Shown here: positions 48-42,296 of the stretch, in pieces
Position numbering within the stretch: the first letter of the stretch is position 1
How the letters are laid out: each line of letters opens with the position of its first letter
From: a virus
Taxonomy: Duplodnaviria > Caudoviricetes
Strand: one strand, 5' to 3'
Length of the DNA: 64,000 bases
Virus record (IMG/VR): IMGVR_UViG_3300037067_009225
Span: 32,001-96,000 of that record
Position numbers and translations under genes: made by a program
The notes under the pieces: generated by a model
Told to the model about the DNA's origin: nothing
Database searches by the model: none
The model's input: only the letters and a program-made list of their open reading frames with translations

Positions 48-473
48 ATGAGAAAAGTTTTAGAAAATATTAAAGATGATATAGTTTTTTATTTAAAAGA
101 AAAAAAATTAAATATATCTGACAATGATTTAATTTCGGAACATTTTGGAAAATTATTATTCAAAAATAATTTAAATCACACTATAGAAATAGCTTTTCAT
201 CCAGCAATAACTAAATATAACATAGAAGATATATTTAAAAAAATTGAAAATAAATATTTACATTACATATTAAAAATAAACATGATTAATAAAAACAACA
301 ATAATTATTATAGTCTTATAAGAATTAAAATAACTTTAAGAACTAAACAAGAAATAAGGAAATCAAAAATAAAAGATATATTAAATATAGATGATAATTT
401 AAATATAAGAAAAGAATATAATGATTCAGATTTAGAAAAAGTAATTAAATTCCAGCCAATAATATTAAAGTAA
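48..473 (+). CDS. Hypothetical protein with RxxK tag (IRKSKIKDIL); probable paralog of 3025 and 3389
   Basis: ORF; similar NI..(x)n..I.I..(H/L)P pattern; tag near the C-terminus. Confidence 0.75.
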   Translation: MRKVLENIKDDIVFYLKEKKLNISDNDLISEHFGKLLFKNNLNHTIEIAFHPAITKYNIEDIFKKIENKYLHYILKINMINKNNNNYYSLIRIKITLRTKQEIRKSKIKDILNIDDNLNIRKEYNDSDLEKVIKFQPIILK

Positions 474-476
474 AAT

Positions 477-815
477 ATGAGAAAAATAACAACAGGTATA
501 GATTCAGAATTATTAGATGTAATAAAAAATTCTAACATAATTTATGTTTCAGATTTCTATGGTATTAGAATATTAGTTTTAAATAATGGAACAAATTCTA
601 ATTATTTTCAACTAAATCTTAATTGTTCAGATAGATTATATGATTTGTGTTTAAAAAACAATATAAATATTATAGCAAGAGAAAATCGTGACAATAAAAA
701 TACATATATGTTTTATCGTATATTAAACTCTAAATATAGTGAGTATATAAATTTTAATGATGAAAAAGTTTTAAAAAATTATATTAGAGAACAAAAAATA
801 AAATCTATAATCTAA
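477..815 (+). CDS. Hypothetical protein, C-terminal RxxK tag (IREQKIKSII*)
   Basis: ORF in a tightly packed operon. Confidence 0.75.
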   Translation: MRKITTGIDSELLDVIKNSNIIYVSDFYGIRILVLNNGTNSNYFQLNLNCSDRLYDLCLKNNINIIARENRDNKNTYMFYRILNSKYSEYINFNDEKVLKNYIREQKIKSII

Positions 816-1201
816 TGAATGATGAATATAATGATTTAGATGAAGCTATAAATGATGCTATATTTGAAAAAGAAATTAACGAAAAAATAACATATAATGA
901 AATTTATTTCTTAAAAATATCAAATATAACATTTTTAGTTTTTAATTATACTAGTATTTTTCATTATTATAAAAAAGAATTTTTAGAAAATTTTTTTATT
1001 TATTTATATAATAAGAAAAAAATTAATTACATATTAATTAAACAAACTTATGGTGATATAAGTGGTGTACACGAAAAATTTGATTTATGTACGATATCAT
1101 CATCAGGTAAATTTAATAAAATAAAAAGAAATTTAAATAATATTAATAATATTAATTCAATTATAAGAACTTACAAATTAAAAGAAATAGCTAATGAATA
1201 A
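815..1201 (+). CDS. Hypothetical protein, C-terminal RxxK tag (IRTYKLKEIANE*)
   Basis: TAATG stop/start overlap with the previous ORF. Confidence 0.75.
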   Translation: MNDEYNDLDEAINDAIFEKEINEKITYNEIYFLKISNITFLVFNYTSIFHYYKKEFLENFFIYLYNKKKINYILIKQTYGDISGVHEKFDLCTISSSGKFNKIKRNLNNINNINSIIRTYKLKEIANE

Positions 1202-1529
1202 TTATGATGATTTATTAATAGAGTGTGGTTGTAATATAAGAAAATATAATGGTATTAAAATACTTTATATTAACAACAATGATGTAAAAATACCAAAAGA
1301 ACAATATGATAAATTTTATGCGAATGGGTTTCGTTTAATATGCCAAGAAACTTTTAATACAAAATATTTTGGATTTGAAATTAACACTGAAGTTTTAGGT
1401 CAACATGTTTTTCATTATATTAGACCTGATGGTATAGCAGAATTAGTAATTATTAAAAATGATTTAGATTTAAATAAATTTATTAGAAAATTAAAAATGG
1501 TAGATATATTAAAAATAAAAACCACTTGA
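1194..1529 (+). CDS. Hypothetical protein, C-terminal RxxK tag (IRKLKMVDIL); related to 477..815
   Basis: Shared (F/Y).GI(R/K)IL..NN segment with 477..815. Confidence 0.75.
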   Translation: MNNYDDLLIECGCNIRKYNGIKILYINNNDVKIPKEQYDKFYANGFRLICQETFNTKYFGFEINTEVLGQHVFHYIRPDGIAELVIIKNDLDLNKFIRKLKMVDILKIKTT

Positions 1530-1543
1530 TTAGAATGGTTTTT
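1517..1543. terminator. Probable bidirectional intrinsic terminator
   Basis: AAAAACCA...TGGTTTTT inverted repeat between convergent genes. Confidence 0.5.
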
Positions 1544-1548
1544 TATTT

Positions 1549-1956: not shown

Positions 1957-2025
1957 AATTAATATTTTTTTTATTATATATTAATATTTTGAACTCAATT
2001 TTTTAATATATAGATATGTTTTCTG

Positions 2026-2092: not shown

Positions 2093-2122
2093 ATAAATAA
2101 AAAATAAAGAAAGGAGATTAAA

Positions 2123-2950: not shown

Positions 2951-2953
2951 AAT

Positions 2954-3024: not shown

Positions 3025-3348
3025 ATGGATAATATTATAACCAAAAATATTAAAAAATTCACAGAGAATTATGTGAACACTATTCTATATAATAAAAAAG
3101 TGAAATATATTTTTTATAAAAATGATGAATGTATTGATGTCGAAATTAGTATATTACCTGAAAAATATAGGAAATATTTTATGGATTCTATTAAAACAAA
3201 ATTTAATAACTATATTAAAGATATGTATTATTCTGATTATGATAAATATGATCAATCATTATGTTTAACAATTTATTTAAAAGATAAAGTGGAATTAAGA
3301 AAAGAAATAAGAAAAGAAAAAATTAAAGATATTTTAGAAGAAAGTTAA
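3025..3348 (+). CDS. Hypothetical protein, RxxK tag (IRKEKIKDILEES*)
   Basis: Paralog of 3389..3712 (MD.II.KNI..F). Confidence 0.75.
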   Translation: MDNIITKNIKKFTENYVNTILYNKKVKYIFYKNDECIDVEISILPEKYRKYFMDSIKTKFNNYIKDMYYSDYDKYDQSLCLTIYLKDKVELRKEIRKEKIKDILEES

Positions 3349-3388: not shown

Positions 3389-3712
3389 ATGGATGATATA
3401 ATAATTAAAAATATTGTAGATTTCGCAAATCAATGTATGAATAATGTTATAAAAAATAAAAATACATTTATCACTAATGTATGTAATATTATTGACAATA
3501 AAAAAATTGTTATTGATATACATCCAGAAGTACAAACAAAATATTTCAACCTTATTGTTAATGCTATAAAAAAAGAATTTAAAGAACATGTGGATAATGT
3601 ATATTTATCATATGATAGTAAATATGAATTTTTTATTAATATAACATTAAAAGAAATAAAAAAAACAAGACTTGAAAAAATTAATAAAATTTTTGATGAT
3701 GGGAACATATGA
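3389..3712 (+). CDS. Hypothetical protein, RxxK tag (TRLEKINKIF)
   Basis: Paralog of 3025..3348. Confidence 0.75.
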   Translation: MDDIIIKNIVDFANQCMNNVIKNKNTFITNVCNIIDNKKIVIDIHPEVQTKYFNLIVNAIKKEFKEHVDNVYLSYDSKYEFFINITLKEIKKTRLEKINKIFDDGNI

Positions 3713-4151
3713 TGAATTAAATGGTGATTTGATATTTTTAGCTAAACTTGGTCAATTTGATGTTATAGCTCATGGTTGTAATTGTTTTTGTGCAATGGGA
3801 GCTGGTATAGCTAAACAAATAAAAAAAGAATTTGATGATGCTTATTTAATGGATTGTCAAACAAAAAAAGGAGATTATAATAAACTTGGTAATTATACTA
3901 AAGCATATCAACATGGTGTTTGGATATATAATTTATACATACAATATGAATATGGTACTGATAAAATTCAAATAGATTATGAATCTTTAACACTTTGTTT
4001 AAGAAAATTAAATAGAGAATGTAAAGGAAAAACAATTGGTCTACCTTTAATTGGTTGTGGTTATGCTGGTGGAGATTGGGAAAAAGTTAAACAAATAATT
4101 AAAAAAGAACTATATAACATGAATGTAAAAATAATTTTTTATAAAAAATGA
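3696..4151 (+). CDS. Macro domain protein (ADP-ribose binding/hydrolase)
   Basis: GDL..., IAHGCNCFCAMGAGIAKQI and PLIGCGYAGGDW macrodomain motifs; start moved to the first ATG. Confidence 0.9.
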   Translation: MMGTYDELNGDLIFLAKLGQFDVIAHGCNCFCAMGAGIAKQIKKEFDDAYLMDCQTKKGDYNKLGNYTKAYQHGVWIYNLYIQYEYGTDKIQIDYESLTLCLRKLNRECKGKTIGLPLIGCGYAGGDWEKVKQIIKKELYNMNVKIIFYKK

Positions 4152-4504
4152 ATAGAATTACAATAATATATGATAAATCTGAATATGAATTTGAACTTTT
4201 AGAATATCAAGTTAATAGAAATATGAGGGTATTTACAAATTTAATTGAATTAAATATTAAAATATATATTAATAATATTAATTTTTTTACGAATATTAGA
4301 AATTCATATTTAAAATTTTCTTGTAAAATCTTAGGTTCTGGTTTTCATGGGTGTTATATCAATGATATTGATGTCGATCATACTTCTTCTACTATGACAA
4401 TAAATATTAAACCAGATTATTTTGTTCTTAGAGAAGAATCAAAACCTGAAATTAGATTAAAAAAAATAAAAGAAATATTCAATGAAGGTTTTGATACACA
4501 CTAA
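4148..4504 (+). CDS. Hypothetical protein, RxxK tag (IRLKKIKEIF)
   Basis: ATGA-type overlap; tag. Confidence 0.7.
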   Translation: MNRITIIYDKSEYEFELLEYQVNRNMRVFTNLIELNIKIYINNINFFTNIRNSYLKFSCKILGSGFHGCYINDIDVDHTSSTMTINIKPDYFVLREESKPEIRLKKIKEIFNEGFDTH

Positions 4505-4874
4505 AAAATGGACATATCCATTTGAATTATATTCTGTATCAACACCAGTTGAAACTAATAATACATCTACACATAATAAACCAGAATATAAAATATATTT
4601 AGAAATAGAAAAAAATAATGTTAATTATACTTTATTAATTACTTTTCTAAAAGATATAAATCATAATATTTTTTCAGATACTTATTTATGTGATTTTATT
4701 ATGGATAATGGTAACAAAGTGTGTGTCAACAATTGTAAAATAGGTGTTAATAATTATTATGAAATAGATAAATATTATCAAGTGTTAATAATAACAACAC
4801 AGAAAGTTGAACTTTTTTCAATTAAAAAAATAAGATTCAAAAAATTAAAACAAATATTTAATATGATGACATAA
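4482..4874 (+). CDS. Hypothetical protein, RxxK tag (IRFKKLKQIF)
   Basis: ORF; tag. Confidence 0.7.
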   Translation: MKVLIHTKKWTYPFELYSVSTPVETNNTSTHNKPEYKIYLEIEKNNVNYTLLITFLKDINHNIFSDTYLCDFIMDNGNKVCVNNCKIGVNNYYEIDKYYQVLIITTQKVELFSIKKIRFKKLKQIFNMMT

Positions 4875-5940: not shown

Positions 5941-6470
5941 CACAAGAAGAAATAATATATCACAATAGAAAATTCACTTATTCTACTGGTTGGCATAGTT
6001 CAACTTCATATAAGTCTATTGGTCGTATATTAAATTGGTTAGAAGTTGTTGGTACATATGATTTAATGGAAAAATCAGTAATTGGTACTGGTTATATATC
6101 TTATTGTAAAGAAAAGATAGCTACATATGAAATGGATGAAGATTTAATGATACCAGTATTAACAATAATTTCTGATAAATATAAAATTGTCCAAGAAACA
6201 CAAGATATTTTTATTAAACAAATAAAATCTAAGAAATATGTTGTTTTAAAACATCTATTGTTACCTGATCGTGGTTTTCGTTTTTACACTGAAAATAAAC
6301 CAATGAATAAAAGAAACGAAAATGGTGAGTTTTATATACAACCTATTTTTTGGTCTGACAATTTACAAGAAATAAATATGGTAATTAATATGCAATCTGG
6401 AATAGCAAGTTTTAATGAATTGATAAATCATTTTGATAGAATTGTTAACAAAGACAAATATTTTATATGA
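5937..6470 (+). CDS. Hypothetical protein
   Basis: ATGA-coupled ORF. Confidence 0.75.
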   Translation: MTQEEIIYHNRKFTYSTGWHSSTSYKSIGRILNWLEVVGTYDLMEKSVIGTGYISYCKEKIATYEMDEDLMIPVLTIISDKYKIVQETQDIFIKQIKSKKYVVLKHLLLPDRGFRFYTENKPMNKRNENGEFYIQPIFWSDNLQEINMVINMQSGIASFNELINHFDRIVNKDKYFI

Positions 6471-6961
6471 AAAAAGATAGAAAAATATACTCAATAGAAA
6501 AAATAAGTGAAGAACAGTTAAATGTTATATCAAAAGCTTTAGATGTTTATACCAGATTAGGTTTACTTCAATTAAATAATGCAATAATAGAAGATTTAGT
6601 TTACGATAAAGATTTCAATTATCTTGAAGTAAGAGATGAAGTTGATTATCATTTAAATCAAATTAAAAAATTAATATCTAAATGTAGTGTTAAAGAGAAT
6701 ATTAGAAAATTGTCTGATTATGGTGATAATTGGTCTTTTGGTGTAACTATTGAATTTATTCCAGATAGTTGTAAAAGAGCTTATGAAATTCATAAAACCA
6801 TTTCACATAAAAAATGGAAAGATGATAATTTAGCAAAAGAAATAAAATCTTATTCTGTTCATTCAGATGAAGGTTTGAATTTATTAAATGAAAATAAAGT
6901 TGTTGTTAAATCAGAACAAGAAAGAATTATTAAAATAAAAGATATTTTATCTGATGAATAA
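6467..6961 (+). CDS. Hypothetical protein, RxxK tag (ERIIKIKDILSDE*)
   Basis: ATGA-coupled ORF; tag. Confidence 0.75.
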   Translation: MKKDRKIYSIEKISEEQLNVISKALDVYTRLGLLQLNNAIIEDLVYDKDFNYLEVRDEVDYHLNQIKKLISKCSVKENIRKLSDYGDNWSFGVTIEFIPDSCKRAYEIHKTISHKKWKDDNLAKEIKSYSVHSDEGLNLLNENKVVVKSEQERIIKIKDILSDE

Positions 6962-7011
6962 TTTTTTTATTATAAATAATATTAATATATTTGCAAAATA
7001 AAATAAACAAT

Positions 7012-8703
7012 ATGGAAAACACTGAAATGAATAAGAATTTACCCGAAAAAGTTGATAACATCTCTGAAACTAATGTTCAACCTACTGTTGAAACTACAAA
7101 AGAAAAAAGAAATATAGTAGTAACTATAACTGGTGAAAGAGAAATTATTCAAAGAGAAGCTATTCACCAAAAATTTGTTGATGCTAACGTAGAAATGTTG
7201 GCAACAGGTAATTTACCTTATTATGGTGAATTTAACTTATTTTTGAACTTCCATGAAGCTAATATTGGAACTTGTGGTGTTAATGTTTCAAGTAAGGGTA
7301 TGAATTTTTATTGGGATCGTTCTTTTGTTGATTCACTTGAACAAAAAGAAGCAAATTTCATTCTTATTCATGAAGATTTCCATCTTTTGTTTGATCATAT
7401 CAAACGTACTATTGGTTATGAACAAAAATTATCCAATATTGCTCAAGATATGATTATTAATCAGATTATCTATGATGATGTAATGAAATCAAGTTCATTA
7501 AAGGGATTTCTTCAAATTCCTATTAGCCACGATGAATTTATTAAATTTCCTGATGGTAATTATTTGATGGATGAAAAAGGAAATAAGGTTAAGAACCCAC
7601 ATTATGGTAAAAACACTGCTATGTTTGTACCTAAAGAATATAAAGGTAATTTGATTTTTGAAGAATTATATGAATGGTTGTTGAAAAAATATAACGATTA
7701 TAAAAATCGGCAAGGCCAAGGCCAAGGTCAGAAACAACAAGGACAAGGCCAAGGTCAGAAACAACAAGGCCAAGGACAACAACAGAAAGGCCAAGGTCAA
7801 CCACAACAAGGTCAAGGCCAAGGTGAAGGTCAAGATGGTGAACAGGGTCAGAATAGTCAACAAGGCCAAGGACAAGGTGAAGGATCACAAGACAAGAATA
7901 ATAAAAGTAACCAGAAACAAAAAGGTGGTTGTGGTGAAAAAGGTGACGAACCTGATTATGGCGATTATGGACAAAATGGTACTGAAATGTCACACCTTGA
8001 TAAAATCTTTGAAAATCTTGAACAAAGTAAAGGTCAAACTTTAGATGTCCATCTTGGTGATGAAATTCCAGAAGAATTGAGAAAAGAGATTGTAAAGGAT
8101 ATTATTGAAAATCTTAAATCACGTGGTTTAGAAAGTGGTGAAATGCAAACCATTTTGAATAAATTAAGAAAATCTAAGAAAGATTATCTTAAAGAAATCA
8201 AAAGAGCAATTGCACAAGATATTTTTGGCACATCAAAATCCAAAACTATCACTAGGCCACATCGTAGGGGTGTTGATGGTCTTAAAGGTCATCGTAAATT
8301 TAAGAATAAGATCAATTGTCTTCTTGATACATCTGGTTCTATGGGTGGTGAATTTGAAAAAGTTCTTTCATATATTTTTCAGAATGATGTTGAAATTAAT
8401 CTTATTCAGGTTGACACAAAAATACAAAGTGTTAATATTATTAAAAACAAAAAAGACCTTGAAAAGATGAAAATTAATGGTCTTGGTGGTACTGAACTTC
8501 AACCTGGATTAGATATGATTAGTGACAAGAAAAATAAACTTGATGTTTATAATACTGTCATTTTAACTGATGGTTATACAGATTCATTGAATTTCTCTGG
8601 CATTAAAGGTAAAACTTTAATATTAACTACGGCAAATAAATGTCCTTTAACACATGATAATGGTCGTGTTAAGCAAATTATAATTGATAAAGAAAAGAAT
8701 TGA
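7012..8703 (+). CDS. DUF2201-type metallopeptidase-like + VWA domain protein (MoxR partner)
   Basis: HEDFH (HExxH); Gly/Gln linker; LLDTSGSM, GGT and LTDG MIDAS motifs; adjacent AAA ATPase. Confidence 0.85.
   Translation: MENTEMNKNLPEKVDNISETNVQPTVETTKEKRNIVVTITGEREIIQREAIHQKFVDANVEMLATGNLPYYGEFNLFLNFHEANIGTCGVNVSSKGMNFYWDRSFVDSLEQKEANFILIHEDFHLLFDHIKRTIGYEQKLSNIAQDMIINQIIYDDVMKSSSLKGFLQIPISHDEFIKFPDGNYLMDEKGNKVKNPHYGKNTAMFVPKEYKGNLIFEELYEWLLKKYNDYKNRQGQGQGQKQQGQGQGQKQQGQGQQQKGQGQPQQGQGQGEGQDGEQGQNSQQGQGQGEGSQDKNNKSNQKQKGGCGEKGDEPDYGDYGQNGTEMSHLDKIFENLEQSKGQTLDVHLGDEIPEELRKEIVKDIIENLKSRGLESGEMQTILNKLRKSKKDYLKEIKRAIAQDIFGTSKSKTITRPHRRGVDGLKGHRKFKNKINCLLDTSGSMGGEFEKVLSYIFQNDVEINLIQVDTKIQSVNIIKNKKDLEKMKINGLGGTELQPGLDMISDKKNKLDVYNTVILTDGYTDSLNFSGIKGKTLILTTANKCPLTHDNGRVKQIIIDKEKN
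7711..7880 (+). repeat. Coding tandem repeat (CAAGGN)n encoding a QG-rich linker
   Basis: QGQGQGQKQQ repeated units. Confidence 0.85.
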
Positions 8704-8711
8704 TATGAAAA

Positions 8712-8735
8712 CCCACATGAAAGTGTGGGCTTTTT
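8712..8735 (+). terminator. Intrinsic terminator, GAAA tetraloop
   Basis: CCCACA-TGAAAG-TGTGGG then CTTTTT. Confidence 0.75.
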
Positions 8736-8823
8736 AATTATTTTCCAAAAAAAACTTAAATAATTTTTTTATTCCAAAAATAAATGTTAATTTTGAATTA
8801 TAAATTAAAAAACAAATAAATAT

Positions 8824-10098
8824 ATGATGAAAAATGCACTATCAAGATTCACAGGAATCTCCGAAACTGAAATCAGAAAACGTCTTGAAAAACTCACCAT
8901 CAAGGAATTGAAGTATTTCAAGATTATGTTGGCAAAGTCTGGCGTGTTGTACATCACCAGTAAGCCAGGTATTGCTAAATCCGCTATCATCAAATCAATT
9001 GCTGATAAGTTGGGCTTTGCTTTTTACGACATTCGTTTGTCTATGGTTGATGAAACTGATGTTGGATTGTTCCCTAAAGTTGGTACTGTAACTGTTAATG
9101 GTGTTGAATGGGATATTCTTAAACACGTTCCACCTGAATGGGGCTTTCTTGCTAACGAAAAACCTTCTATCATCTTCTTTGAAGAGTTGAATCGTTCACA
9201 GCTTTCAGTTCGTAATGCTGCTCTGCAGATTCTTCTTGAACGTTCCATTGGTTTCAAGTTTCATTTCAACGATAACGTTCTTATGGTTGCCTCTGGTAAC
9301 TTGGGTGAAGAAGATGGTACAGATGTTGAAGAATTTGACTCGGCTCTTAACAATCGTCTTATTCATGTTAAGCACCTTTTGACTATTGAAGAATGGGTTG
9401 ATGGTTTTGCAAGAGAACATGTTCATCCGACTATCGTTTCTTTTGTCACTACAAATGGTGAACATTTCTATAAGAAAAGTGATAATGAAAAGGATAATTA
9501 CGCTTATGCAACACCACGTTCATGGACATTCTTATCCGATTACATTAACACCAATTTTCCTCCTGTTCAGGATACCGATAAGAATGGAAACCTTATTTTT
9601 GTCAACAGCAAGAACCAAATTGTTGATGAAAAAAACCCTGATGCTATGCCTAAAATGAAGTATGCTCCAATAAAGCAATGGCTTGGCGAAATTAAAGATA
9701 TTGGTGTATCATATGTTGGCCCATCAATAACAAGGTTCATTCGTTACTGTGAAGAATCTATGAGAATTTCCATCAAAGATGTTATTGATCGTTATCCTGA
9801 CATCAAGAATGACCTCAAATCATTCAACAGAGATAAGCATAGCGAACTTCTGAATTCTCTTAAAGAAATCGACATCATGTCGCTGAAAGATGTTCAGTTG
9901 GAAAACATCAAGGAATTCTTAACTTCAATGTCAGATGATGAAGTTGTTGGATATCTTCTCTATCTTCTTGATGACCAGTACAGCTTGAATGATGATACCA
10001 ACAACAAGAAAAACATGAAGGTTAAGGATTTCATCAAGGATAAGAGGTTTAAAAAGTTCTTCAAAACTATCCTTGACCATTGCTCAAAAGAAGATTAG
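8824..10098 (+). CDS. MoxR-like AAA+ ATPase
   Basis: Walker A variant SKPGIAKS; DIRLS; Walker B IIFFEELNR; ASGN; DSALNNR; ATPRSW. Confidence 0.88.
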   Translation: MMKNALSRFTGISETEIRKRLEKLTIKELKYFKIMLAKSGVLYITSKPGIAKSAIIKSIADKLGFAFYDIRLSMVDETDVGLFPKVGTVTVNGVEWDILKHVPPEWGFLANEKPSIIFFEELNRSQLSVRNAALQILLERSIGFKFHFNDNVLMVASGNLGEEDGTDVEEFDSALNNRLIHVKHLLTIEEWVDGFAREHVHPTIVSFVTTNGEHFYKKSDNEKDNYAYATPRSWTFLSDYINTNFPPVQDTDKNGNLIFVNSKNQIVDEKNPDAMPKMKYAPIKQWLGEIKDIGVSYVGPSITRFIRYCEESMRISIKDVIDRYPDIKNDLKSFNRDKHSELLNSLKEIDIMSLKDVQLENIKEFLTSMSDDEVVGYLLYLLDDQYSLNDDTNNKKNMKVKDFIKDKRFKKFFKTILDHCSKED

Positions 10099-10197: not shown

Positions 10198-10539
10198 ATG
10201 ATCTCAAAAGAAAAAATATTAAAAGAAATTGATATTTTACATATTGATAATAGTATAAAAGAAAAATATAAAAATTTCTTTATTTCTCATATACAAAATC
10301 AACATAATGATAAAAATATGATAATAGATGTATGGTTTATATGTAAATATGTTATATTAAATTTTTCACCTTATTGTAATAATACTAATGATTTTAATTC
10401 TATTGGTGTAAGTGTAAAATTTACTTATATTAAAAATAATATAGAAAATAGTGGTAATTTATCAATAACCATAGATGATATATATGATTTTTTAAATAAA
10501 GAAAGAATTGATAAAATAAAAAATATAATCAATGAATAG
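10198..10539 (+). CDS. Hypothetical protein, RxxK tag (ERIDKIKNIINE*)
   Basis: ORF; tag. Confidence 0.7.
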   Translation: MISKEKILKEIDILHIDNSIKEKYKNFFISHIQNQHNDKNMIIDVWFICKYVILNFSPYCNNTNDFNSIGVSVKFTYIKNNIENSGNLSITIDDIYDFLNKERIDKIKNIINE

Positions 10540-11104
10540 CGATTTTTTAGATAAAAAAAAGGAAGAATTAATAATACATATTAATAACAATTTCCCATAT
10601 TGTTTTTTCTGTGGTAGCTTATCTTTAAATATGCTGGAATTGATAAATAGACCTATACATGATGTTGATATTTGTGTACCTATAAAATATAAAAAACAGG
10701 CCATAGAATATTTTTACAAATTGAAAAATAAAGATAAACAATCTTTTATAAAAAAAATTATAAACTTTTTTGATTTTTTTTCAAAAAATATAGATTTAAC
10801 ATCAAAGTACATGAGATTAAATATACAAGGCATAGATATTTGTATATTTTTTGAAAATGAATATAGGTGTATATTACATAAATTAAACTATTCTAAAATT
10901 AGAATAAGTTTTCCAGAAAATATCATAAAAGCAAAAAAGATTTATGTGAAAACAGGGTATTCTCATTATGATAATGAAACTTTAAAAAACAATATGGAAA
11001 AACATCTTAATGATATAAAATCATATGAGAAAAATAAAGAAAAATATATTAAAAAATTAAAGTTAAAAGATATTTTGGGTGAAGTAAAAATAATAAATCT
11101 TTAA
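10532..11104 (+). CDS. Nucleotidyltransferase-fold protein (pol-beta superfamily), tag variant (IKKLKLKDIL)
   Basis: GSLSL...RPIHDVDI motif; later IDI. Confidence 0.6.
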   Translation: MNSDFLDKKKEELIIHINNNFPYCFFCGSLSLNMLELINRPIHDVDICVPIKYKKQAIEYFYKLKNKDKQSFIKKIINFFDFFSKNIDLTSKYMRLNIQGIDICIFFENEYRCILHKLNYSKIRISFPENIIKAKKIYVKTGYSHYDNETLKNNMEKHLNDIKSYEKNKEKYIKKLKLKDILGEVKIINL

Positions 11105-12912: not shown

Positions 12913-13290
12913 ATGGAAAAACAATTAAAATTTATAAAAAAAGAATTGAAAGAAAACATTAAAATGTCTAAAAAAAGAATTGATGATCTTTATTCAGAAA
13001 AAAATCAAGCTGAAAAGCTTCCAAATGATTGTTTGGGTTATGTTGATGAAGATGGTATCAAATGTGAAAATCCAAATATGAAAATTGATTTATTAACTGG
13101 ATATGAACATCAAATAGGATATTTAGAATGTTTGCTTAATAATAGTATCAATATATTATCAATATTGGAAATGAATGATTCTGAATTTGAGAGTTTTATA
13201 AAAAGAGATAAAGAGATAGAAGAACAAAATAAAAAGACTTTAGCAGAACTAAAAAAGAAAATAAAATTCAATAGATATGAAAAAAAGTAA
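12913..13290 (+). CDS. Hypothetical protein
   Basis: ORF; start moved to MEKQLK. Confidence 0.7.
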   Translation: MEKQLKFIKKELKENIKMSKKRIDDLYSEKNQAEKLPNDCLGYVDEDGIKCENPNMKIDLLTGYEHQIGYLECLLNNSINILSILEMNDSEFESFIKRDKEIEEQNKKTLAELKKKIKFNRYEKK

Positions 13291-30330: not shown

Positions 30331-31458
30331 TTATTTATTAAATTCATCTTTATCTGTACTTTTATACCAATTTGTAAAATATTTTTTATAAACTTCTTTC
30401 AAATCTTCTAATGTAATAGATTCAATATTATATTCTAAATTCCATTCATTTGGTGATATAAAATCTGACACATTACGATATCTATTTATTTCTCTTTTTT
30501 TAAATTTTGTTAAATACATATCTTTTATAAGATCAAAACGCTCTTTTGTTAAAAAAGTTTCTGGTTTATTTAAAAGATTATCAAGAGTTTCTTTAAACAA
30601 ATTAACATTATTATTTGATGTTAATGATGATATATTAATAAAACCAGATGCATCACTTTTCTTATCAAGATAACAATGAACATAATAAACTAAACCACGT
30701 TTTTCTCTTAATTCAATATATAATGGGGATTTTAAACCAAGACCTAACATATCAGTTATAAAACTAACTGAAACAAAATCATTAGTAACAACATTTGATA
30801 AATATATAATTGATGTTTTATCTTTAAATTCATTAGATTTTTGAAGTGTATAATCATTATCTTTTAAATAACGATATATTTTATTTAATTTTTCTGTTGG
30901 TTTTGAAAAATTAAGAACTTTTTCGTATTTAAAATCTTTTGATACATTTATAATCATAGTTGGATTTTTATATTGTATCTCAAAATAATCTAAACAATCT
31001 TGATATGTTAATTTTTTCAAGTCACCTAATTCACCAATTGGGCCATATGTATTAAAAAGTTTTCTAAAAAGATTTTCACTATGACATTCTGTTTGTTCGT
31101 TGAATGAATTTTCATATTCTTCTATAACAATTTGTTTTTCATTTTTAAATTGTTCTTCTGTAACATTAAATTTACTCATTAAATCAACAACAACATCTCT
31201 ATATTTAGAAAGTTTTTCTTCCAAACCTTGGAAATAAAAAACTACAACATCATCTGCTGTATAAGCGTTCCAATCTATACCATTCTGGTCAAATTCTTCT
31301 AATAAATGATCAAAGTTCTTGCAGCAAAGATGTTCCATCAAATGGGAGATGCCCCTTATGCCAACTTTTTCATTTAAAACACTACCTTTATAAACTAAAT
31401 AGAATCCAGATAATTCAGTTGGATTTTTTAAATTTAAAATTTTTTGATAATTATTCAT
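30331..31458 (-). CDS. M16 family (insulinase-like) zinc peptidase
   Basis: GISHLMEH (HxxEH), NAYT and ELREKRGLVY motifs. Confidence 0.92.
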   Translation of the reverse strand: MNNYQKILNLKNPTELSGFYLVYKGSVLNEKVGIRGISHLMEHLCCKNFDHLLEEFDQNGIDWNAYTADDVVVFYFQGLEEKLSKYRDVVVDLMSKFNVTEEQFKNEKQIVIEEYENSFNEQTECHSENLFRKLFNTYGPIGELGDLKKLTYQDCLDYFEIQYKNPTMIINVSKDFKYEKVLNFSKPTEKLNKIYRYLKDNDYTLQKSNEFKDKTSIIYLSNVVTNDFVSVSFITDMLGLGLKSPLYIELREKRGLVYYVHCYLDKKSDASGFINISSLTSNNNVNLFKETLDNLLNKPETFLTKERFDLIKDMYLTKFKKREINRYRNVSDFISPNEWNLEYNIESITLEDLKEVYKKYFTNWYKSTDKDEFNK

Positions 31459-31505: not shown

Positions 31506-32390
31506 ATGGAAAATCAAAAAAGTTTAATAATTTATTTTTCAATAGGTAATAATAGTGGTAAAAAATCAAGAGAATATTGGTTAAAAGAAAATAATTTTAT
31601 TTTATATTCAAAAATAATAAATTTTTGTTTAGAAAATAATTTAGATAATATATCATTTAAGCAAAAAATATATCATTTTGTTTATAATTTAAAAACAATA
31701 CCAGTTTGTTTAACTTGCGGAAAAGAAGTTAAATATTTAAGATTTAAATCAGGTTATCAAAAACACTGTTGTGAATTTTGTGCTAATAACAGTAAAATAA
31801 GTAAAGAAAAATGGAAAAAATCTTATAATGAAAATAAACAAAACCATAATATTAAAAATAAAAGAGATGCTACGGTAATTAAAAAATATGGTGATGTTGA
31901 AACATATCAAAAAATATTAAATGAAAAAAGAATTTCAAAAACATTAGAAAAATATAATTGTCAATATTATTTTCAAACTGATGAATTTAAAAAGAATAGG
32001 AAAAGTAAATTAAAAGAAAAATATAACGATGAAAATTATAATAATAAAGAAAAAACTAAAAACACAAGAATCAAAAATAAAACACAAATTAATGATGATG
32101 ACATTGAATGTTATTTAAATTATAAAAAAATAGTCATTAAAACAACAATTAAAATTTATAAAAAATATAAAAACATTATCAACCCAAACAATTTAAAAAG
32201 AGGATTTAAATTTTACCATATAGATCATATATATTCAATAAAACAAGGTTTTATAAATAATATACCAATTGATATAATAACAAATCCAAACAATTTAAGA
32301 ATGATTTGGTGGGAAGAAAATATTAAAAAACAAGATAGGTGTGATATAAAAATAGAAGAATTAGTAGAAAAAATAAATCATTCAAATTAA
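31506..32390 (+). CDS. Putative HNH homing endonuclease
   Basis: N-terminal CxxC/CC..C, KYG repeats, C-terminal HIDHI...NL......N. Confidence 0.75.
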   Translation: MENQKSLIIYFSIGNNSGKKSREYWLKENNFILYSKIINFCLENNLDNISFKQKIYHFVYNLKTIPVCLTCGKEVKYLRFKSGYQKHCCEFCANNSKISKEKWKKSYNENKQNHNIKNKRDATVIKKYGDVETYQKILNEKRISKTLEKYNCQYYFQTDEFKKNRKSKLKEKYNDENYNNKEKTKNTRIKNKTQINDDDIECYLNYKKIVIKTTIKIYKKYKNIINPNNLKRGFKFYHIDHIYSIKQGFINNIPIDIITNPNNLRMIWWEENIKKQDRCDIKIEELVEKINHSN

Positions 32391-32672
32391 ATTTAATTTA
32401 ACTTTTCTAATTTCTTTTAATTTTTCTGAATCATCCTTTTTATCCCACTCTATTAATTTAATAATAATAGTTGGAATTGTTATATTTAATGAATTTAAAT
32501 AATCTTTAGATATTTCTTTTTTTAATTCAGTATCTTTATAAAAAGAAAGATTATAATCTACTAATATGTAAAATATTGGTAAATCTTTTATTTTAGTAAG
32601 AACTAAAAAAATTATAGTCCTTTCTGTTTTTGATTTATAATTTAAATTTACAATGGTAAATATATTATTCAT
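32382..32672 (-). CDS. Hypothetical protein, RxxK tag (IRKVKLNLI*)
   Basis: ORF; tag. Confidence 0.65.
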   Translation of the reverse strand: MNNIFTIVNLNYKSKTERTIIFLVLTKIKDLPIFYILVDYNLSFYKDTELKKEISKDYLNSLNITIPTIIIKLIEWDKKDDSEKLKEIRKVKLNLI

Positions 32673-33025: not shown

Positions 33026-33616
33026 TTAATAAAAAATATTATCCATTTTTATTTTTCTTGTTTTTTTTGCCATATTTTTTAAATCTTGTTCATTTAAAAA
33101 ATTAATAGTTAAATTGATGTTATTATCTTTAAATATATTTTTTATTTCTAAACCATATTCATTATTATCTAATAAAATAATTTTTGTTTTTTTATATTTT
33201 TGTTCATTATAAGAACAATATTGAAAAATAAAATTTCTAAAATGTTTATTATTTTCAAAAAAATATTTAATATCATCTATTATAATAATATTATATAATT
33301 TAGAAATTATATTGTATTCACTAATATAACTTCTTTCATTTATTGTTGAACCATTTTTTAATTTAAAAAAATTTATTTTTTTATCATATTCTGGATAATT
33401 TTTTATAATTAAATCAATAACATAAAGCCAACTTAGGTTACGTTTTGTAGTTGTGAAATATACACCATGATATGATTCATTATTTATACAACTTTCCATT
33501 AAAAAATATTTCAATATAGTTGAAGAACCACAATTATTCGGTCGTATTAATAATATATTATCATTATTTTTTAATATATTAAGTGTATATTCAAAATGAT
33601 TTTTATAATCAATCAT
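33026..33616 (-). CDS. Degenerate terminase-ATPase-like P-loop protein, RxxK tag
   Basis: ILLIRPNNCGSST / FKLKNGSTI / IIIIDD occur in the same order as TerL motifs. Confidence 0.5.
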   Translation of the reverse strand: MIDYKNHFEYTLNILKNNDNILLIRPNNCGSSTILKYFLMESCINNESYHGVYFTTTKRNLSWLYVIDLIIKNYPEYDKKINFFKLKNGSTINERSYISEYNIISKLYNIIIIDDIKYFFENNKHFRNFIFQYCSYNEQKYKKTKIILLDNNEYGLEIKNIFKDNNINLTINFLNEQDLKNMAKKTRKIKMDNIFY

Positions 33617-33617: not shown

Positions 33618-34268
33618 TTATAGAATTTCTTGAATTTTTAATTGTCTAATATATTTTTTATAAATTGAGTCATTTAATAATTCTGTCGCATTATTTTCTA
33701 ATAAAAAATTGTGTAATGTAATAAAATTATTCTGAATCATATATTTTTGAAAATAATCATTAAAAATACCTTTTATATTATTATCAAAAATATAATTTAC
33801 ATATTCTATTTTATTTATAGTTTTTTCATATTTAGTTTCACGAAAAATACTATAAGTATGATAATCATTAATATAAAATTTTCTAAAATTAAAATTTAAT
33901 ATGTTATTATAATTTAAATCATATTCATCAACTAACTTATAATAAAAATCATTACTAATTTGAGTAATTTTAATTTCATCATTTATATAAATAAAAGCAA
34001 AACGTGTATCAAAAAATTTTAATGGATAATTATTTGTTTTTAAATTATAGATTTTTATTTTTTTATAGAGTCTTTGGTCAAAAGATAAATTATTAAAAAA
34101 ATAATTACCATTAAAATATAAACCATCTATACAAATTGAATGGTTTTCTGATATTTTTTCTATAACAGTATCAAATCTATAGTTATTTGTAAATATATAA
34201 GGATTGGGTAAAAAAATAATTTTATCACCTTTTTTTAATTCATAATATAATTCACTAAAAACGTTCAT
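33618..34268 (-). CDS. Hypothetical protein, RxxK tag (IRQLKIQEIL*)
   Basis: Paralog of 35519 (L..GD....LPNP). Confidence 0.7.
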   Translation of the reverse strand: MNVFSELYYELKKGDKIIFLPNPYIFTNNYRFDTVIEKISENHSICIDGLYFNGNYFFNNLSFDQRLYKKIKIYNLKTNNYPLKFFDTRFAFIYINDEIKITQISNDFYYKLVDEYDLNYNNILNFNFRKFYINDYHTYSIFRETKYEKTINKIEYVNYIFDNNIKGIFNDYFQKYMIQNNFITLHNFLLENNATELLNDSIYKKYIRQLKIQEIL

Positions 34269-35517: not shown

Positions 35518-35518
35518 A

Positions 35519-36169
35519 TTATTTGATAATTTCTTTTAATTTTTTAAAACGTATATATTGTTTCATTTCGTTTGTGTTTAATATGTCATTAAAATTATTT
35601 TTAATTGAATCTTTATATATTATATCCATATTATTAGCAACTAATATATTATTTATTCTATTCAAAAATAAAGATTCCAAATTTATTTCTTTAATTTTTT
35701 TTAAATATTCATCTATATTTAAAAATGGGAAATTATATAATTCTTCTGTAAAATATGATTTATCGTAATTTGGTAAAGGATGATTATTATAAGTTTCCAT
35801 CATTTTAATTTTTATATGTAACTTATTAATTTTATCGCCATGTGTAAAACTTCTAATTATTTCAGAATATTTCAAATCAATTAAATTTTTAATTTTAACA
35901 CCAAATCTTGTTATACCAATTTCATCATTATTATAATCAAATGAATAAAATCTAGTTATGCTTTTATAGTGTTTTCTTAATAATTGTGATAAATTATCGT
36001 TATTTGTACTAATAATATATTTATTATTTATATAATATTCGTATGTTAATATAAATAATTCGTTAGAATTACGTAATATATTAGTGTTTTTATTATAAAA
36101 AAATGGATTTGGTAAAATTAAAAATTCATCACCATCATTTAATTTATTATGTACACTATGATTATTCAT
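35519..36169 (-). CDS. Hypothetical protein, RxxK tag (IRFKKLKEIIK*)
   Basis: Paralog of 33618. Confidence 0.7.
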   Translation of the reverse strand: MNNHSVHNKLNDGDEFLILPNPFFYNKNTNILRNSNELFILTYEYYINNKYIISTNNDNLSQLLRKHYKSITRFYSFDYNNDEIGITRFGVKIKNLIDLKYSEIIRSFTHGDKINKLHIKIKMMETYNNHPLPNYDKSYFTEELYNFPFLNIDEYLKKIKEINLESLFLNRINNILVANNMDIIYKDSIKNNFNDILNTNEMKQYIRFKKLKEIIK

Positions 36170-36475: not shown

Positions 36476-36760
36476 TTATTTTTCATCTTTGAAAATTTTT
36501 TCAATTTTTTCTTTTCTTATTTGAGATATACCCTTAAATGTATAATTGAATGGATCATTTTGTCCACCAATAGTTCTTTTTGTTAATAAACTATCACAAT
36601 TTTCACAATATATTTCACAATCCCACGCTGAATGTGGCATTTCTCCATCATTAACAATTTTACCACATTCTTCACAACACCAAATAACATTTTTTAATGT
36701 TATTGCTGTATCCCACCTTTTTCTATTATCTAATTTTTTAAATTCTTCTGGTGTAATCAT
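36476..36760 (-). CDS. Zinc-ribbon protein, RxxK tag (IRKEKIEKIF)
   Basis: CEEC...CENC. Confidence 0.7.
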   Translation of the reverse strand: MITPEEFKKLDNRKRWDTAITLKNVIWCCEECGKIVNDGEMPHSAWDCEIYCENCDSLLTKRTIGGQNDPFNYTFKGISQIRKEKIEKIFKDEK

Positions 36761-37146
36761 ATATTTATTTTTTGTAATTTTATTTTTCTATAAAATAATT
36801 TAAATTTTTTATTTTGTTTAACTAAATTATTATATGTTGATATTTCTTTATAAAAATTTAAATTACAATTTTTTGATGATGTTGTTTTTATCCAATATTC
36901 AAAATTTTTAAATAAAACATAATTAGATATAATTTTATTATAATTAGTTACTTTTAAATCTAATCCATATTTTTCCCATTTTATTTTTACTATATCTCCT
37001 TTTTTAAAAACTGTATCATTAAAATTTCTAATATATAAACCTTTTAATATAAAATATAAACTATATTCATCTTCTTTAATAGTTTTTAAATATATATCAG
37101 ACATAATTATTTTTCTTAGAAAATTAAAGAACCCTTCGTATTCCAA
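36757..37146 (-). CDS. Hypothetical protein, RxxK tag (YRKIKLQKI)
   Basis: ORF; true start probably MSDIYL. Confidence 0.65.
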   Translation of the reverse strand: MEYEGFFNFLRKIIMSDIYLKTIKEDEYSLYFILKGLYIRNFNDTVFKKGDIVKIKWEKYGLDLKVTNYNKIISNYVLFKNFEYWIKTTSSKNCNLNFYKEISTYNNLVKQNKKFKLFYRKIKLQKINI

Positions 37147-39662: not shown

Positions 39663-40855
39663 GAAATTTCACCAATTTCTAAAATTCTTTTACACAATTC
39701 AATTTCAGATTTTTCACCTGTATGTTTACCTTTATTATCGCTCAATTTAACTGCTGGTTGCCAAATATTATTTACTTTAACATATGTAATTTTAATTACA
39801 ATATTTAAAGGTTTTACATTTTGAAGATTATTACTAAGATTCGTACCAACACCAAATGCTGAATTAATACCTTTTTCATCACAATATTTTTTAATACTTA
39901 TAGCAGAATTCATATCTAAACCATCACTAAAAATAATAGATTTACTTTTTGGATCAATTTTTAGTGAATTATAATGGTTTACTATTTTATCAACATACTC
40001 ATATGGATTTCCACTGTCATGTCTACATGAATCAAAAAGTTTACTATATTTCGCACCAAATGATTGTAAAAATATATCAGTTGTGTAACAGTCAGTTAAA
40101 GCAGTACCAAGATTTCCTTGATAACTATTAACCCAATTATCAAGAGAAATTGTTGTTGCCATCTTATATCCATATAAAGCAGCATGACACATACTCCATT
40201 CGTGTGGGTGCGTTCCATGTGGATTTAAATTAAACATATGAGCAAAGTGTACATTACTTGTTCCAGTAAATGTGTTTTTATCATAAGAAAGAAAATCTTC
40301 TATAACTTCTTTTTGGTTTTCATAAGAAAATCTTCTTCTTGTTCCAAATTCAGATACTTTTAAATTATTATCAATAATTAATTTTGCTTTATTCAAATTA
40401 TTTGTTTGTCTAATTTTTCTATTATTTGAATCATCAAAATCATATGAATCTGTCATTTCAAAATATAATTCGGATATAATAGCCATCAACGGTGTTTCCC
40501 ACAATACTGATCTGTACCACTTTCCTTCTATAATAACTGATAAATCACCATTATTTAAATTTACAGTAACTTCATTTGGATTGAATGTATATCCTTCAAG
40601 AAAATCTAAAAACCAATCTGGTAAATAACTACCACATTTTTTCATTAAAAATTGTTTTTCTGATTTTGTTAAAGCTACATATGTTAAATTTTGAATTTCT
40701 TTTTCAAGATAATAATCAAATTTATCAGGAAATTTTACATTGTTTCTATTAATAAACTCATATTTAACATCTAAATTTGATAATTCCTTATTGCTGAGGA
40801 TCGCAAACATAGTTGTAAATTTATATAAATCTGTATCAAGAATGCTATTAATCAT
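39626..40855 (-). CDS. pncB: Nicotinate phosphoribosyltransferase
   Basis: LDTDLYKFT, EFGTRRR, GTSNV, GTHPHEW, RHDSG, FSDGL, FGVGT and KLSD motifs. Confidence 0.95.
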   Translation of the reverse strand: MINSILDTDLYKFTTMFAILSNKELSNLDVKYEFINRNNVKFPDKFDYYLEKEIQNLTYVALTKSEKQFLMKKCGSYLPDWFLDFLEGYTFNPNEVTVNLNNGDLSVIIEGKWYRSVLWETPLMAIISELYFEMTDSYDFDDSNNRKIRQTNNLNKAKLIIDNNLKVSEFGTRRRFSYENQKEVIEDFLSYDKNTFTGTSNVHFAHMFNLNPHGTHPHEWSMCHAALYGYKMATTISLDNWVNSYQGNLGTALTDCYTTDIFLQSFGAKYSKLFDSCRHDSGNPYEYVDKIVNHYNSLKIDPKSKSIIFSDGLDMNSAISIKKYCDEKGINSAFGVGTNLSNNLQNVKPLNIVIKITYVKVNNIWQPAVKLSDNKGKHTGEKSEIELCKRILEIGEISYDKKPAGNEND

Positions 40856-40893
40856 AGTTTTTATTTTTAATTTACAAATATAACAATTATTTT

Positions 40894-41451
40894 TTAAATA
40901 ATACTCTTTATTTTATTTTTTCTTATTTCTTTTTTTAATTCTTCATTATTTAATGTTATTAAATCATATATTTCATTTAATCCTAAACTCAAAAATAATT
41001 TTAAACAATTAACATCAGATTTTATAAACCTCTTTGGAGATTTAAATCTCATAATTTTTAATAACTTAAAATATGGTATTCTAATTTCTATATTAGGTGG
41101 TATATTATTATTAGCATTAGAATAAAAATTTATATGTGATATAAAAATTATTATATAATAATTAACAACGTTTTTATAAATACTCAATTTAATATCACCT
41201 TTAACATTTTTATTTTGTGATATAGAATTCACATCATAATATATTGTTTTAAATAAACTAAAAGAACAAAAAATAGATTTATTAAGAATGAAAAGAAAAA
41301 AGGCATATAAAAAAACTAAAATAAAATATTTATATTTATAATTATTTATAAAAGATATTGAAGATATTTTATTAAGAAAAACAACAACTAAAACATACAA
41401 TAGTATGTAAGATGAAATATATAGAGCGTTTTTTAATTTATAATTCTTCAT
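40894..41451 (-). CDS. Membrane protein, RxxK tag (IRKNKIKSII*)
   Basis: Two N-terminal hydrophobic helices. Confidence 0.7.
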   Translation of the reverse strand: MKNYKLKNALYISSYILLYVLVVVFLNKISSISFINNYKYKYFILVFLYAFFLFILNKSIFCSFSLFKTIYYDVNSISQNKNVKGDIKLSIYKNVVNYYIIIFISHINFYSNANNNIPPNIEIRIPYFKLLKIMRFKSPKRFIKSDVNCLKLFLSLGLNEIYDLITLNNEELKKEIRKNKIKSII

Positions 41452-41893
41452 CTTGAAATATACTTTTTATTTTGCTACTTCTACTATAAATTTTAATATC
41501 ACTTAAATATTTTTTTGATAACATTTGTCCATATGAAACACTATTTAAATAAAAATATACATTTAATGCATCATTATCATTATAATCATAATAACCTTCA
41601 AAATGTTCCATTTGTTTTATATTTTTCAAATCAAATTTATGATTTGAAATAGTATTTCTATTAAAAGAATAAATAGCTGGCCCATCACTTCTATGATGTT
41701 TTCCATTACAAAACCAAACAAATCTTGTTGAACCACCAATATAATATTCTTGAAAAGCTGGTTCTTTTAATGAATGTAATGTATAATCTTGTAATTTAAA
41801 AGATTTCCATTTAAATTCATCAGTAAAAATTATTTTACCAACTTCTTTAGTTACTATTACTATTTTTTCTAATTGACATTCTGGTTTAACCAT
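41438..41893 (-). CDS. Hypothetical protein with W..NG..HR.DGPA motif, RxxK tag
   Basis: VWFCNGKHHRSDGPA; SRSSKIKSIF. Confidence 0.7.
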   Translation of the reverse strand: MVKPECQLEKIVIVTKEVGKIIFTDEFKWKSFKLQDYTLHSLKEPAFQEYYIGGSTRFVWFCNGKHHRSDGPAIYSFNRNTISNHKFDLKNIKQMEHFEGYYDYNDNDALNVYFYLNSVSYGQMLSKKYLSDIKIYSRSSKIKSIFQDEEL

Positions 41894-41894
41894 T

Positions 41895-42296
41895 TTATTT
41901 TAAAATTTTTTCTATTTTTAATTTTCTAATATATTTTATTTTTAAAATATCAGCTATTTCTTTATGTCCTAATTCATTTGCAAAATCAGAAGCTGTTTCA
42001 TTATTATAAGTTTTTAAACTAACATCAGCACCATAATTTATCAATAAATCAATCATTTCTTTTTTTCCTTGAATTGCAGCCTATATTAAAGCAGTATGAC
42101 CATCTCTATTTTGATTATTAATATCTGCACCGTTTTGAATTAAATATTTTACAATATCTATTTCACCTTTATATACCATGTGCATCAAAATTGAACTACC
42201 AGTATGTGATTTAATGTTAACATCTATACCAGAATTAATAATTTGTTTTACTATTTCTAAATTATTATCTCTAATATGATCAAATATTTCGTGCAT
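41895..42296 (-). pseudogene. Ankyrin-repeat protein interrupted by an in-frame TAG (42081-42083)
   Basis: GHTALI*AAIQGKKEMIDLLINYGADV...ELGHKEIADIL...YIRKLKIEKILK*; ankyrin consensus continues past the stop. Confidence 0.8.

Follow-up and report, generated by a model that had tools for sequence, protein, structure and literature searches.

A conserved C-terminal peptide shared by unrelated small proteins of Mahaphage-type huge phages

The window analyzed here is a stretch of 64,000 nucleotides (nt) of phage DNA (Duplodnaviria; Caudoviricetes) with a G+C content of 19-27%, corresponding to bases 32001-96000 of the 113,906-base IMG/VR virus record IMGVR_UViG_3300037067_009225 (a 113.9-kb contig, hereafter G000). 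The initial annotation had reported that about 35 otherwise unrelated proteins encoded between positions 48 and 42296 of the window share a motif, R-x-x-K-[ILM]-x-x-[IL], at or near their C-terminus. We analyzed this C-terminal tag on the map of the whole contig, which comprises 168 open reading frames (ORFs) with a coding density of 94%, using as core motif R-x-x-K-[ILM]-x-x-[ILF] (the R being position 0) starting within the last 22 residues. All 36 ORFs listed initially carry the motif, 32 of them strictly within the last 22 residues. The particular cases were borne out as well: K replaces R in the ORF at 10532, the motif of the frameshifted ORF at 13461 is present in the continuation frame (13616-13639), and the ORF at 41895 encodes the C-terminal portion of an ankyrin protein whose gene contains an in-frame TAG. 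In the ORFs at 48 and 21202 the motif lies 30 and 19 residues before the end. The carriers are the following:

48..473, plus strand: motif internal (nt 357-380), 30 residues before the end
477..815, plus strand: tag at nt 768-812
815..1201, plus strand: tag at nt 1148-1198
1194..1529, plus strand: tag at nt 1467-1517; the next gene is on the opposite strand
3025..3348, plus strand: tag at nt 3292-3342; paralogue of the ORF at 3389
3389..3712, plus strand: tag at nt 3650-3700
4148..4504, plus strand: tag at nt 4436-4486
4482..4874, plus strand: tag at nt 4815-4865
6467..6961, plus strand: immediately precedes the VWA gene; tag at nt 6905-6955; orthologue in the related phage G001 tagged
10198..10539, plus strand: tag at nt 10486-10536
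10532..11104, plus strand: K for R, motif at about nt 11051-11077
13277..13471, plus strand: tag at nt 13418-13468
13461..13645, plus strand: frameshift-broken tandem paralogue of the ORF at 13277, motif in the other frame at nt 13616-13639
15077..15259, plus strand: 60 residues, tag at nt 15203-15253
19269..19616, minus strand: tag at nt 19275-19325
21202..21492, minus strand: motif 19 residues before the end, at about nt 21259-21285
21485..21667, minus strand: tag at nt 21488-21535
21657..21896, minus strand: tag at nt 21666-21716
21966..22220, minus strand: tag at nt 21975-22025
26287..26583, minus strand: tag at nt 26290-26340
26580..26969, minus strand: two hydrophobic segments, tag at nt 26583-26627
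26966..27469, minus strand: tag at nt 26981-27031
27423..27833, minus strand: two hydrophobic segments, tag at nt 27432-27482
27833..28168, minus strand: Zn-ribbon family, tag at nt 27836-27880
28165..28512, minus strand: Zn-ribbon family, tag at nt 28168-28212; modelled, tag in helix 99-114
28509..28850, minus strand: Zn-ribbon family, tag at nt 28512-28556
28847..29053, minus strand: short Zn-ribbon, tag at nt 28850-28894; G001 orthologue tagged
32382..32672, minus strand: tag at nt 32385-32426; the next gene is on the opposite strand
33026..33616, minus strand: tag at nt 33029-33076
33618..34268, minus strand: tag at nt 33621-33665
35519..36169, minus strand: paralogue of the ORF at 33618, tag at nt 35522-35569
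36476..36760, minus strand: Cys-rich, tag at nt 36485-36535
36757..37146, minus strand: tag at nt 36760-36807
40894..41451, minus strand: hydrophobic segments, tag at nt 40897-40941
41438..41893, minus strand: tag at nt 41450-41500; G001 orthologue tagged
41895..42296, minus strand: ankyrin repeats, one in-frame TAG, tag at nt 41898-41945; modelled

The single in-frame TAG of the ankyrin gene is located at a conserved repeat position, and read-through would give a 133-residue ankyrin protein with the tag. This codon may be a nonsense mutation, a sequencing error or a site of local read-through; TAG terminates 9 of the 168 ORFs of the contig, and no tRNA genes were found in the window.

Over the whole contig the motif is present in the tail of 42 of the 168 ORFs, i.e. 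about a quarter, compared with 0.9 ± 1.0 ORFs (maximum 4) when the tails were shuffled 1000 times. The per-position rate of the motif in tails is about 50 times the internal rate, and only one ORF has it in its first 22 residues. The existence of the motif is thus confirmed. In G000 the extended consensus reads [K]-x-[I]-R-x-x-K-[IL]-[KNE]-x-I-[LIF]. This version of the tag is net basic, and 0-7 residues, most of them polar or acidic, come after it. The summary consensus can be written phi-R-x-x-K-[ILM]-x-x-[IL]-[ILF], where phi is a hydrophobic residue.

G000 represents about 16% of an uncultured Mahaphage-type huge phage: CheckV rates the record as 16% complete, which implies a whole genome of about 700 kb. 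Its T4-type large terminase (TerL) shares 52% identity with that of the 735-kb phage LR756501 and 65% with those of two landfill phages, G001 (675.7 kb, 98% complete, 1137 ORFs) and G002 (640 kb, complete with terminal repeats, 985 ORFs). G000, G001 and G002 are referred to below as clade A. LR756501 is a more distant relative, as is G005 (562 ORFs), which together with G004 makes up two 345-kb relatives with 55% identical terminases. The large terminase of G000 is split into two ORFs (55269-55790 and 56732-59035, plus strand) with an opposite-strand gene between them, and the second ORF alone served as marker. A search for close relatives among viral contigs with the nicotinate phosphoribosyltransferase (NAPRTase) returned none.

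The tail motif is found in 169 of the 1137 ORFs of G001 and in 108 of the 985 ORFs of G002, where 4-6 are expected from shuffled tails; 11-15% of the genes of these complete relatives are therefore tagged. A 17-column profile built from the tag tails (profile A1) matched 42 proteins in G001, 30 in G002 and 9 in a 98-kb relative. The consensus in G001 and G002 is phi-R-K-[LE]-K-[IL]-[KE]-[EK]-[IL]-[FL]-x-[DE], with a gap of two residues to the end as the commonest arrangement; Glu is frequent at positions 5-6 and an acidic residue frequently comes next, which brings the net charge close to zero. In all three phages 0-12 residues follow position 8, with a mode of 0-2. When G001 and G002 were compared, 89 of 99 tagged orthologues kept the tag and only 2 of 543 untagged proteins had a tagged orthologue. 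Over the ten residues of the tag the tagged orthologues share 78% identity, compared with 57% over the bodies; for the pairs that have diverged most, the figures are 74% and 40%. In the untagged controls the C-terminus was no better conserved than the rest of the protein. Taken together, these comparisons indicate that the tag is under purifying selection and is a clade-wide feature on the scale of the proteome.

The motif is selected as a peptide and not as DNA, because it occurs in frame, its codons are neutral, its Arg and Lys are specific and it is independent of the downstream gene. A six-frame scan of G000 detected 78 occurrences: 53 share the reading frame of a gene, against 15 that are off-frame, 8 antisense and 2 intergenic, and the frameshifted copy in the 13461 ORF accounts for one of the two intergenic hits. 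Codon choice at the conserved R and K matches the genome (AGA 88% vs 81%, AAA 98% vs 92%); ATA and ATT are used about 1:1 at the conserved I positions, and overall the R, K, I and L codons follow genome-wide usage. Position 4 alternates between ATA, ATT, TTA, CTA and ATG, remaining hydrophobic throughout. Arg and Lys are not interchangeable: when other polar residues are allowed at both positions, R..K is found 33 times compared with 4 for K..K and 1 each for R..R and K..R, in a proteome where Lys is four times commoner than Arg. The DNA itself is not conserved regardless of frame, as a nucleotide-level repeat would be. Protein-level selection had been proposed in the initial annotation, which also considered that the conservation might be explained by the translation-initiation region of a coupled downstream gene. 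This is contradicted by the carriers without any co-directional gene within 15 nt downstream (14 of 42 in G000, 60 of 169 in G001 and 51 of 108 in G002), a third or more in each phage, and some carriers face an opposite-strand gene downstream.

The bodies to which the tag is attached are highly diverse. After trimming of the tails, 44 carriers (a set defined with a slightly looser pattern permitting K at position 0) fell into 37 BLASTP clusters. Only one of the 28 window carriers scanned, the ankyrin protein, matched a Pfam family above the curated cut-off; several others have hydrophobic segments or Cys-x-x-Cys pairs. A search of 5.8 billion proteins with the carrier 33618-34268 retrieved only the protein itself. 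Likewise, among the 100 largest tagged proteins of G001, Pfam families were assigned only to an ABC ATPase, an Acb3-family protein, one ankyrin protein and one DUF4987 protein. Across lineages the recognizable bodies are ankyrin, leucine-rich repeat (LRR), Acb3, Zn-ribbon, ABC ATPase and membrane-segment proteins; tagged ankyrin proteins are encoded by G000, by G002 and by G001, where one of the two has the tag. The claims that a portable motif sits on unrelated accessory bodies, and that core enzymes and structural genes lack it, held. Acb3, described in Pfam as an inhibitor of CBASS (cyclic oligonucleotide-based antiphage signaling system), illustrates the portability: in G001 and G002 the tag forms an extension of about 19 residues after the domain, and the G005 homologue is untagged and stops two residues past the domain. 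This comparison identifies the tag as an add-on module. By BLASTP about 8 of the 42 G000 carriers, compared with most of the untagged ORFs, matched a homologue in G001 or G002, and tagged proteins therefore appear to turn over fast.

Profile A1 gave no match in G004 and G005 and a single weak one in LR756501. Because these are not real matches, we searched for tags de novo by looking, in each genome, for residue triplets enriched in the last 20 residues. This unbiased search recovered the R..K pattern in G000, G001 and G002 and revealed different tags in the sister lineages. The LR756501 tag, [KR]-[IV]-[FY]-S-x-x-D-P-Y-G-E-E-x-W-x-x-COOH, is carried by 41 ORFs and is two residues from the free end in 26 of them. 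The G005 tag, [E]-[ASG]-x-K-[ML]-G-L-L-COOH, is located exactly at the end of 86 of the 562 ORFs. The codons for the invariant Pro, Gly, Glu and Leu of these two tags vary over the whole synonymous range, which identifies the tags as peptide-level signals. No tag crosses lineages, except that five G005 genes have a clade A-like R-K-x-K-[LI]-x-R-I-[RK] ending (genes at e.g. 271671, 287069, 302226, 334388 and 341370, loci L116-L133), and two tag systems may coexist in this phage. In addition, BLASTP (1e-5) found no pair of homologues from different lineages in which both members are tagged. The comparison indicates that the tag is replaced by other peptides in sister lineages.

The loci encoding an M16 peptidase in 79 other IMG/VR contigs again contain D-P-Y-G-E-E-x-W, together with at least two further endings. 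The candidate tags at the M16 loci L203 and L154, L155, L193 and L194 are phi-x-x-V-M-[DEQ]-x (five ORFs) and D-x-R-x-L-L-[LM]-M (three ORFs). In G005, 9 of the 11 LRR proteins, which form one paralogous family, are tagged. The tagged small ORFs of LR756501 include extra fragment copies of the prohead protease (Peptidase_S77), of a Gp23-type capsid protein and of the C-terminal domain of the tail sheath, and the full-length prohead protease, capsid and sheath genes of this phage are untagged. The tagged fragment ORFs are:

L079:11317-11850, minus strand
L086:5891-6124, plus strand
L106:12412-12918, minus strand
L106:13799-14236, minus strand

The G001 genome encodes at 545023-547428 (L072:5026-7428, minus strand) an 801-residue prohead protease-like protein with tandem repeats of about 14 residues (the BLAST matches are shifted by 14), and short ORFs of G002 and LR756501 share this repeat.

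The timing of expression of the carriers was approached through their promoters. The sequence TAATATATA precedes 25 start codons in G000, 124 in G001 and 109 in G002 at a distance of 30-35 nt. Those of the sheath and TerL are among them, and about 10% of the start codons of these phages are preceded in this way. Because of this tight spacing we read it as a promoter, likely the late-type promoter of clade A. Tagged genes are almost absent directly behind it (0, 3 and 1 in G000, G001 and G002, or 4 out of 258 compared with about 36 expected). In agreement with the initial annotation, operons containing carriers are more often preceded by TAnnTTT[GA] boxes than other operons (61% vs 33%), and the Bacteroidota-type box TAnnTTTG is 2-4 times commoner before them. 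We infer from these upstream sequences that the carriers are probably early or middle genes.

The initial annotation had described the tag as an amphipathic helix, and this was supported in part. In an AlphaFold2 model of the Zn-ribbon carrier 28165..28512 (five-sequence alignment, mean pLDDT 81) the tag is included in the terminal helix 99-114, and in a model of the ankyrin carrier (single sequence, mean pLDDT 79) it ends a 21-residue terminal helix (112-132) whose confidence drops at the tip. A helix is thus predicted in both models, but it does not look like a clean amphipathic one: on our helical wheel, positions -1, 0, 3, 4, 7 and 8 span half of the helix, which places the Arg and Lys amid the aliphatics on the hydrophobic face, and the tags of the relatives are about neutral. 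As modelled, this conserved face is more readily explained by specific contact with a protein than by binding to lipid.

We lean towards the interpretation that the tag is a short linear docking peptide, a C-terminal helix of 10-12 residues recognized by one common reader; this is in our opinion somewhat more probable than the sum of the other explanations. The tag (phi-R-[K]-x-K-[IL]-x-x-[IL]-[FLI]), as a rule with 0-4 further residues before the free end, would be appended to small, fast-evolving, non-late proteins and would most likely work in trans. The reader would grip the conserved face, to which the two invariant residues, Arg and Lys, and three or four aliphatics contribute, and unlike proteins would thereby be brought under one handling step. 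We favour for this role either a recruitment hub or a machine that handles proteins, be it a protease, an unfoldase or an AAA+ remodeller; the tagged proteins would be either clients of the reader or adaptors bringing their own targets. The reader and its action are inferred, docking to one common partner being the simplest mechanism. Three loci of the window were considered in this respect:

30331..31458, minus strand: zinc peptidase of the M16 family, HxxEH intact; the gene belongs to the conserved core, and the product is a candidate reader
6991..10098, plus strand: HExxH-VWA protein (MIDAS, metal ion-dependent adhesion site, DxSGS) and MoxR AAA+ ATPase, candidate reader
25504..26190, minus strand: ClpP, excluded as common reader

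The M16 peptidase (370 residues) has more than 1000 homologues, with at least 50% identity among the best 120, and several of them are encoded by contigs of up to 817 kb (loci L134-L212); judging from these homologues it looks like a core gene of these huge phages. Every lineage has conserved the HExxH-VWA protein, whose MIDAS is intact, and the MoxR ATPase; the length of the VWA protein varies between lineages (570, 504 and 435 residues), and tagged genes flank the pair only in G000 and G001. This pair, also put forward in the initial annotation, stays a candidate. The phage ClpP had been suggested as the common hub in the initial annotation. This did not hold, and we rejected ClpP as clade-wide reader: PF00574 matched in G000 (Pfam E 7e-61) but in neither G001 nor G002, with their 169 and 108 tagged ORFs. 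ClpP is also absent from G005 and LR756501 and looks like a recent acquisition of G000.

Several observations weigh against docking to a single reader. No reader was identified by phyletic filtering, by a charge-flip screen or by gene neighbourhood. Phyletic filtering leaves 215 lineage-specific conserved candidates. In the charge-flip screen, which compared clade A with LR756501 over 117 core orthologue groups, no group reached significance; M16 came first with 9 vs 4 columns. The M16 gene is at most a few genes away from tagged ones in G000, G001, G002, LR756501 and L160 but not in most of the 79 other M16 loci. Many carriers are found in tandem arrays with paralogous groups, and consequently part of the sharing of the tag stems from duplication. 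Finally, the swapping of one tag for another on about 100 proteins is hard to picture without quick turnover of the carriers, which the small share of G000 carriers with a homologue in G001 or G002 does suggest.

Docking of unrelated proteins on one hub through short C-terminal peptides is known from the clamp-binding tails of T4/RB69 gp43, gp33, gp55 and other proteins and from the PIP-box (PCNA-interacting protein box) and beta-clamp motifs. The spacing K-x-K-[IL]-x-x-[IL]-[FL] of the tag resembles that of the PIP-box Q-x-x-[ILM]-x-x-[FY]-[FY], and the G005 tag K-[ML]-G-L-L-COOH resembles Q-L-x-L-[FL]. In contrast to clamp peptides, which are present on a handful of replication and transcription factors, the tag is carried by hundreds of orphan accessory proteins; its invariant residues are Arg and Lys, with no Gln as in the PIP-box or in Q-L-[SD]-L-F, its last two positions are aliphatic or Phe, and it differs between sister lineages. 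No DnaN- or gp45-type sliding clamp was detected with PF02768 and PF09116 in G000, G001, G002, G005 and LR756501, a Pfam search that a divergent phage clamp or the host clamp could escape.

The tag could instead be a C-terminal degron through which a protease or unfoldase of the host or the phage would destroy early accessory proteins at a set time, each lineage having its own degron. This would be a special case of a reader, predicting instability of the tagged proteins and not their recruitment. In all three lineages the motif is near the free C-terminus (exactly at the end in G005, two residues off in 26 of 41 LR756501 proteins), the carriers are non-late, small and fast-evolving, and the phages have conserved proteases, namely M16 with intact HxxEH and HExxH-VWA with MoxR. 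The basic-then-hydrophobic shape of the tag also recalls the C-motif 2 by which ClpX recognizes MuA-type substrates, and, as with the ssrA and MuA degrons of ClpX/ClpA, a portable C-terminal peptide would be read by one machine. Unlike these degrons, which depend on a free terminal carboxylate, the clade A motif has no fixed extreme position, 0-12 residues following it, and phage ClpP is not conserved with the tag, being absent from G001 and G002. Furthermore, M16 is about 50% identical across lineages whose tags are unlike, a poor fit to a reader co-varying with its tag. We regard a degron as a credible but rather unlikely explanation.

A broader scheme, to which we give only tentative credence and a little less than to the degron, is that of an adaptor library. 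Here the variable bodies would each bind a different host, defence or rival-phage target, and the constant helix would plug into one effector machine that degrades, sequesters or relocates whatever the bodies hold. The bodies would be the ankyrin, LRR and Zn-ribbon proteins, the fragment copies of capsid, sheath and protease, and many orphans. The tag-reader pairs would be orthogonal, with one for each huge-phage lineage and sometimes two, as in G005, and the whole would amount to a phage version of the F-box/PRANC systems. Poxvirus ankyrin-PRANC proteins and cellular F-box/SOCS-box adaptors similarly combine variable target-binding bodies with a constant C-terminal module, in large, fast-evolving, virus-encoded sets. 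A variable body joined to a constant C-terminal module is indeed what was found in the ankyrin carriers of G000, G001 and G002 and in the tagged LRR proteins of G005. In contrast to the folded domain of about 40-60 residues of F-box and PRANC proteins, which in the F-box type binds Skp1, the tag is a single helix of 10-12 residues, most of its bodies are not repeat proteins, and the host is not known to have a ubiquitin-like system.

We also considered that terminal helices might pair with each other as a short coiled coil, giving homo- or hetero-oligomers or a condensate without any separate reader. The tag is helical with a heptad-like K-I-E-x-I-L spacing, and the only match of the tag profile in the PDB was a designed pentameric coiled coil (non-significant, E 5.6). 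We find such self-association improbable in view of the length of the tag, which spans only about 1.5 heptads, of the invariant Arg in the middle of the conserved face, and of the D-P-Y-G-E-E-x-W and K-M-G-L-L tags, which are not coiled-coil-like.

Targeting of the proteins to the inner face of the host membrane is less probable again. The C-terminal helix K-I-K-x-I-[LF] resembles the membrane-targeting sequence of MinD, a C-terminal helix of about 10 residues mixing Lys with Ile, Leu and Phe, and the G000 version of the tag is net basic. Unlike in MinD, however, R and K are position-specific and not interchangeable, Glu at positions 5-6 and the following acidic residue bring the G001 and G002 tags to about zero net charge, and the tag of the sister lineage LR756501 is acidic. 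In addition, proteins having their own membrane segments are also tagged.

Loading into the capsid, by binding of the tag to the inside of the procapsid or to the scaffold so that the proteins are packaged and injected, seems to us very improbable. C-terminal capsid-targeting tails are known in scaffolding proteins, in the HK97 protease and in encapsulin cargo, and LR756501 has a tagged extra copy of the prohead-protease domain and tagged capsid fragments. Against this, only 4 of the 258 genes behind TAATATATA (sheath, TerL and other late genes) are tagged, some carriers have membrane segments, and the full-length structural orthologues are untagged. The T4 capsid-targeting sequence also differs from the tag in being N-terminal and cut by the prohead protease, the tag being C-terminal and on non-late carriers.

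Finally, that the motif is no functional peptide but a nucleotide-level element (initiation region, promoter or recombination site) or the remnant of one hugely expanded paralogous family could be argued from the start codon within 15 nt after two thirds of the G000 carriers, from their clustering and from their several paralogous groups, but this is already largely refuted, to the point of being barely tenable, by the in-frame occurrence and neutral codons, the persistence of the motif where the downstream gene is absent, its presence on unrelated Pfam folds and as an add-on to Acb3, and its conservation beyond that of the bodies.

The initial annotation had not recognized the tag as a described system, and none of the open literature that we searched (on Mahaphage, on shared tags of jumbo phages and by motif string) describes it. 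What is new here is the comparison of tags in three lineages within one clade, together with the orthologue statistics and the exclusion from late promoters. The tag behaves like an address label, and the comparison shows that terminal tags specific to a lineage are part of how huge phages in general are built and not an oddity of one contig. Between a tenth and a quarter of the genes of the largest known phages are small orphan dark matter on which one conserved peptide offers a handle, since the tag shows for each genome which orphan genes would act in one common process. Should the reader be a machine that handles or degrades proteins, the different lineages would, with their pairs of tag and reader, provide natural orthogonal protein-addressing systems for Bacteroidota.

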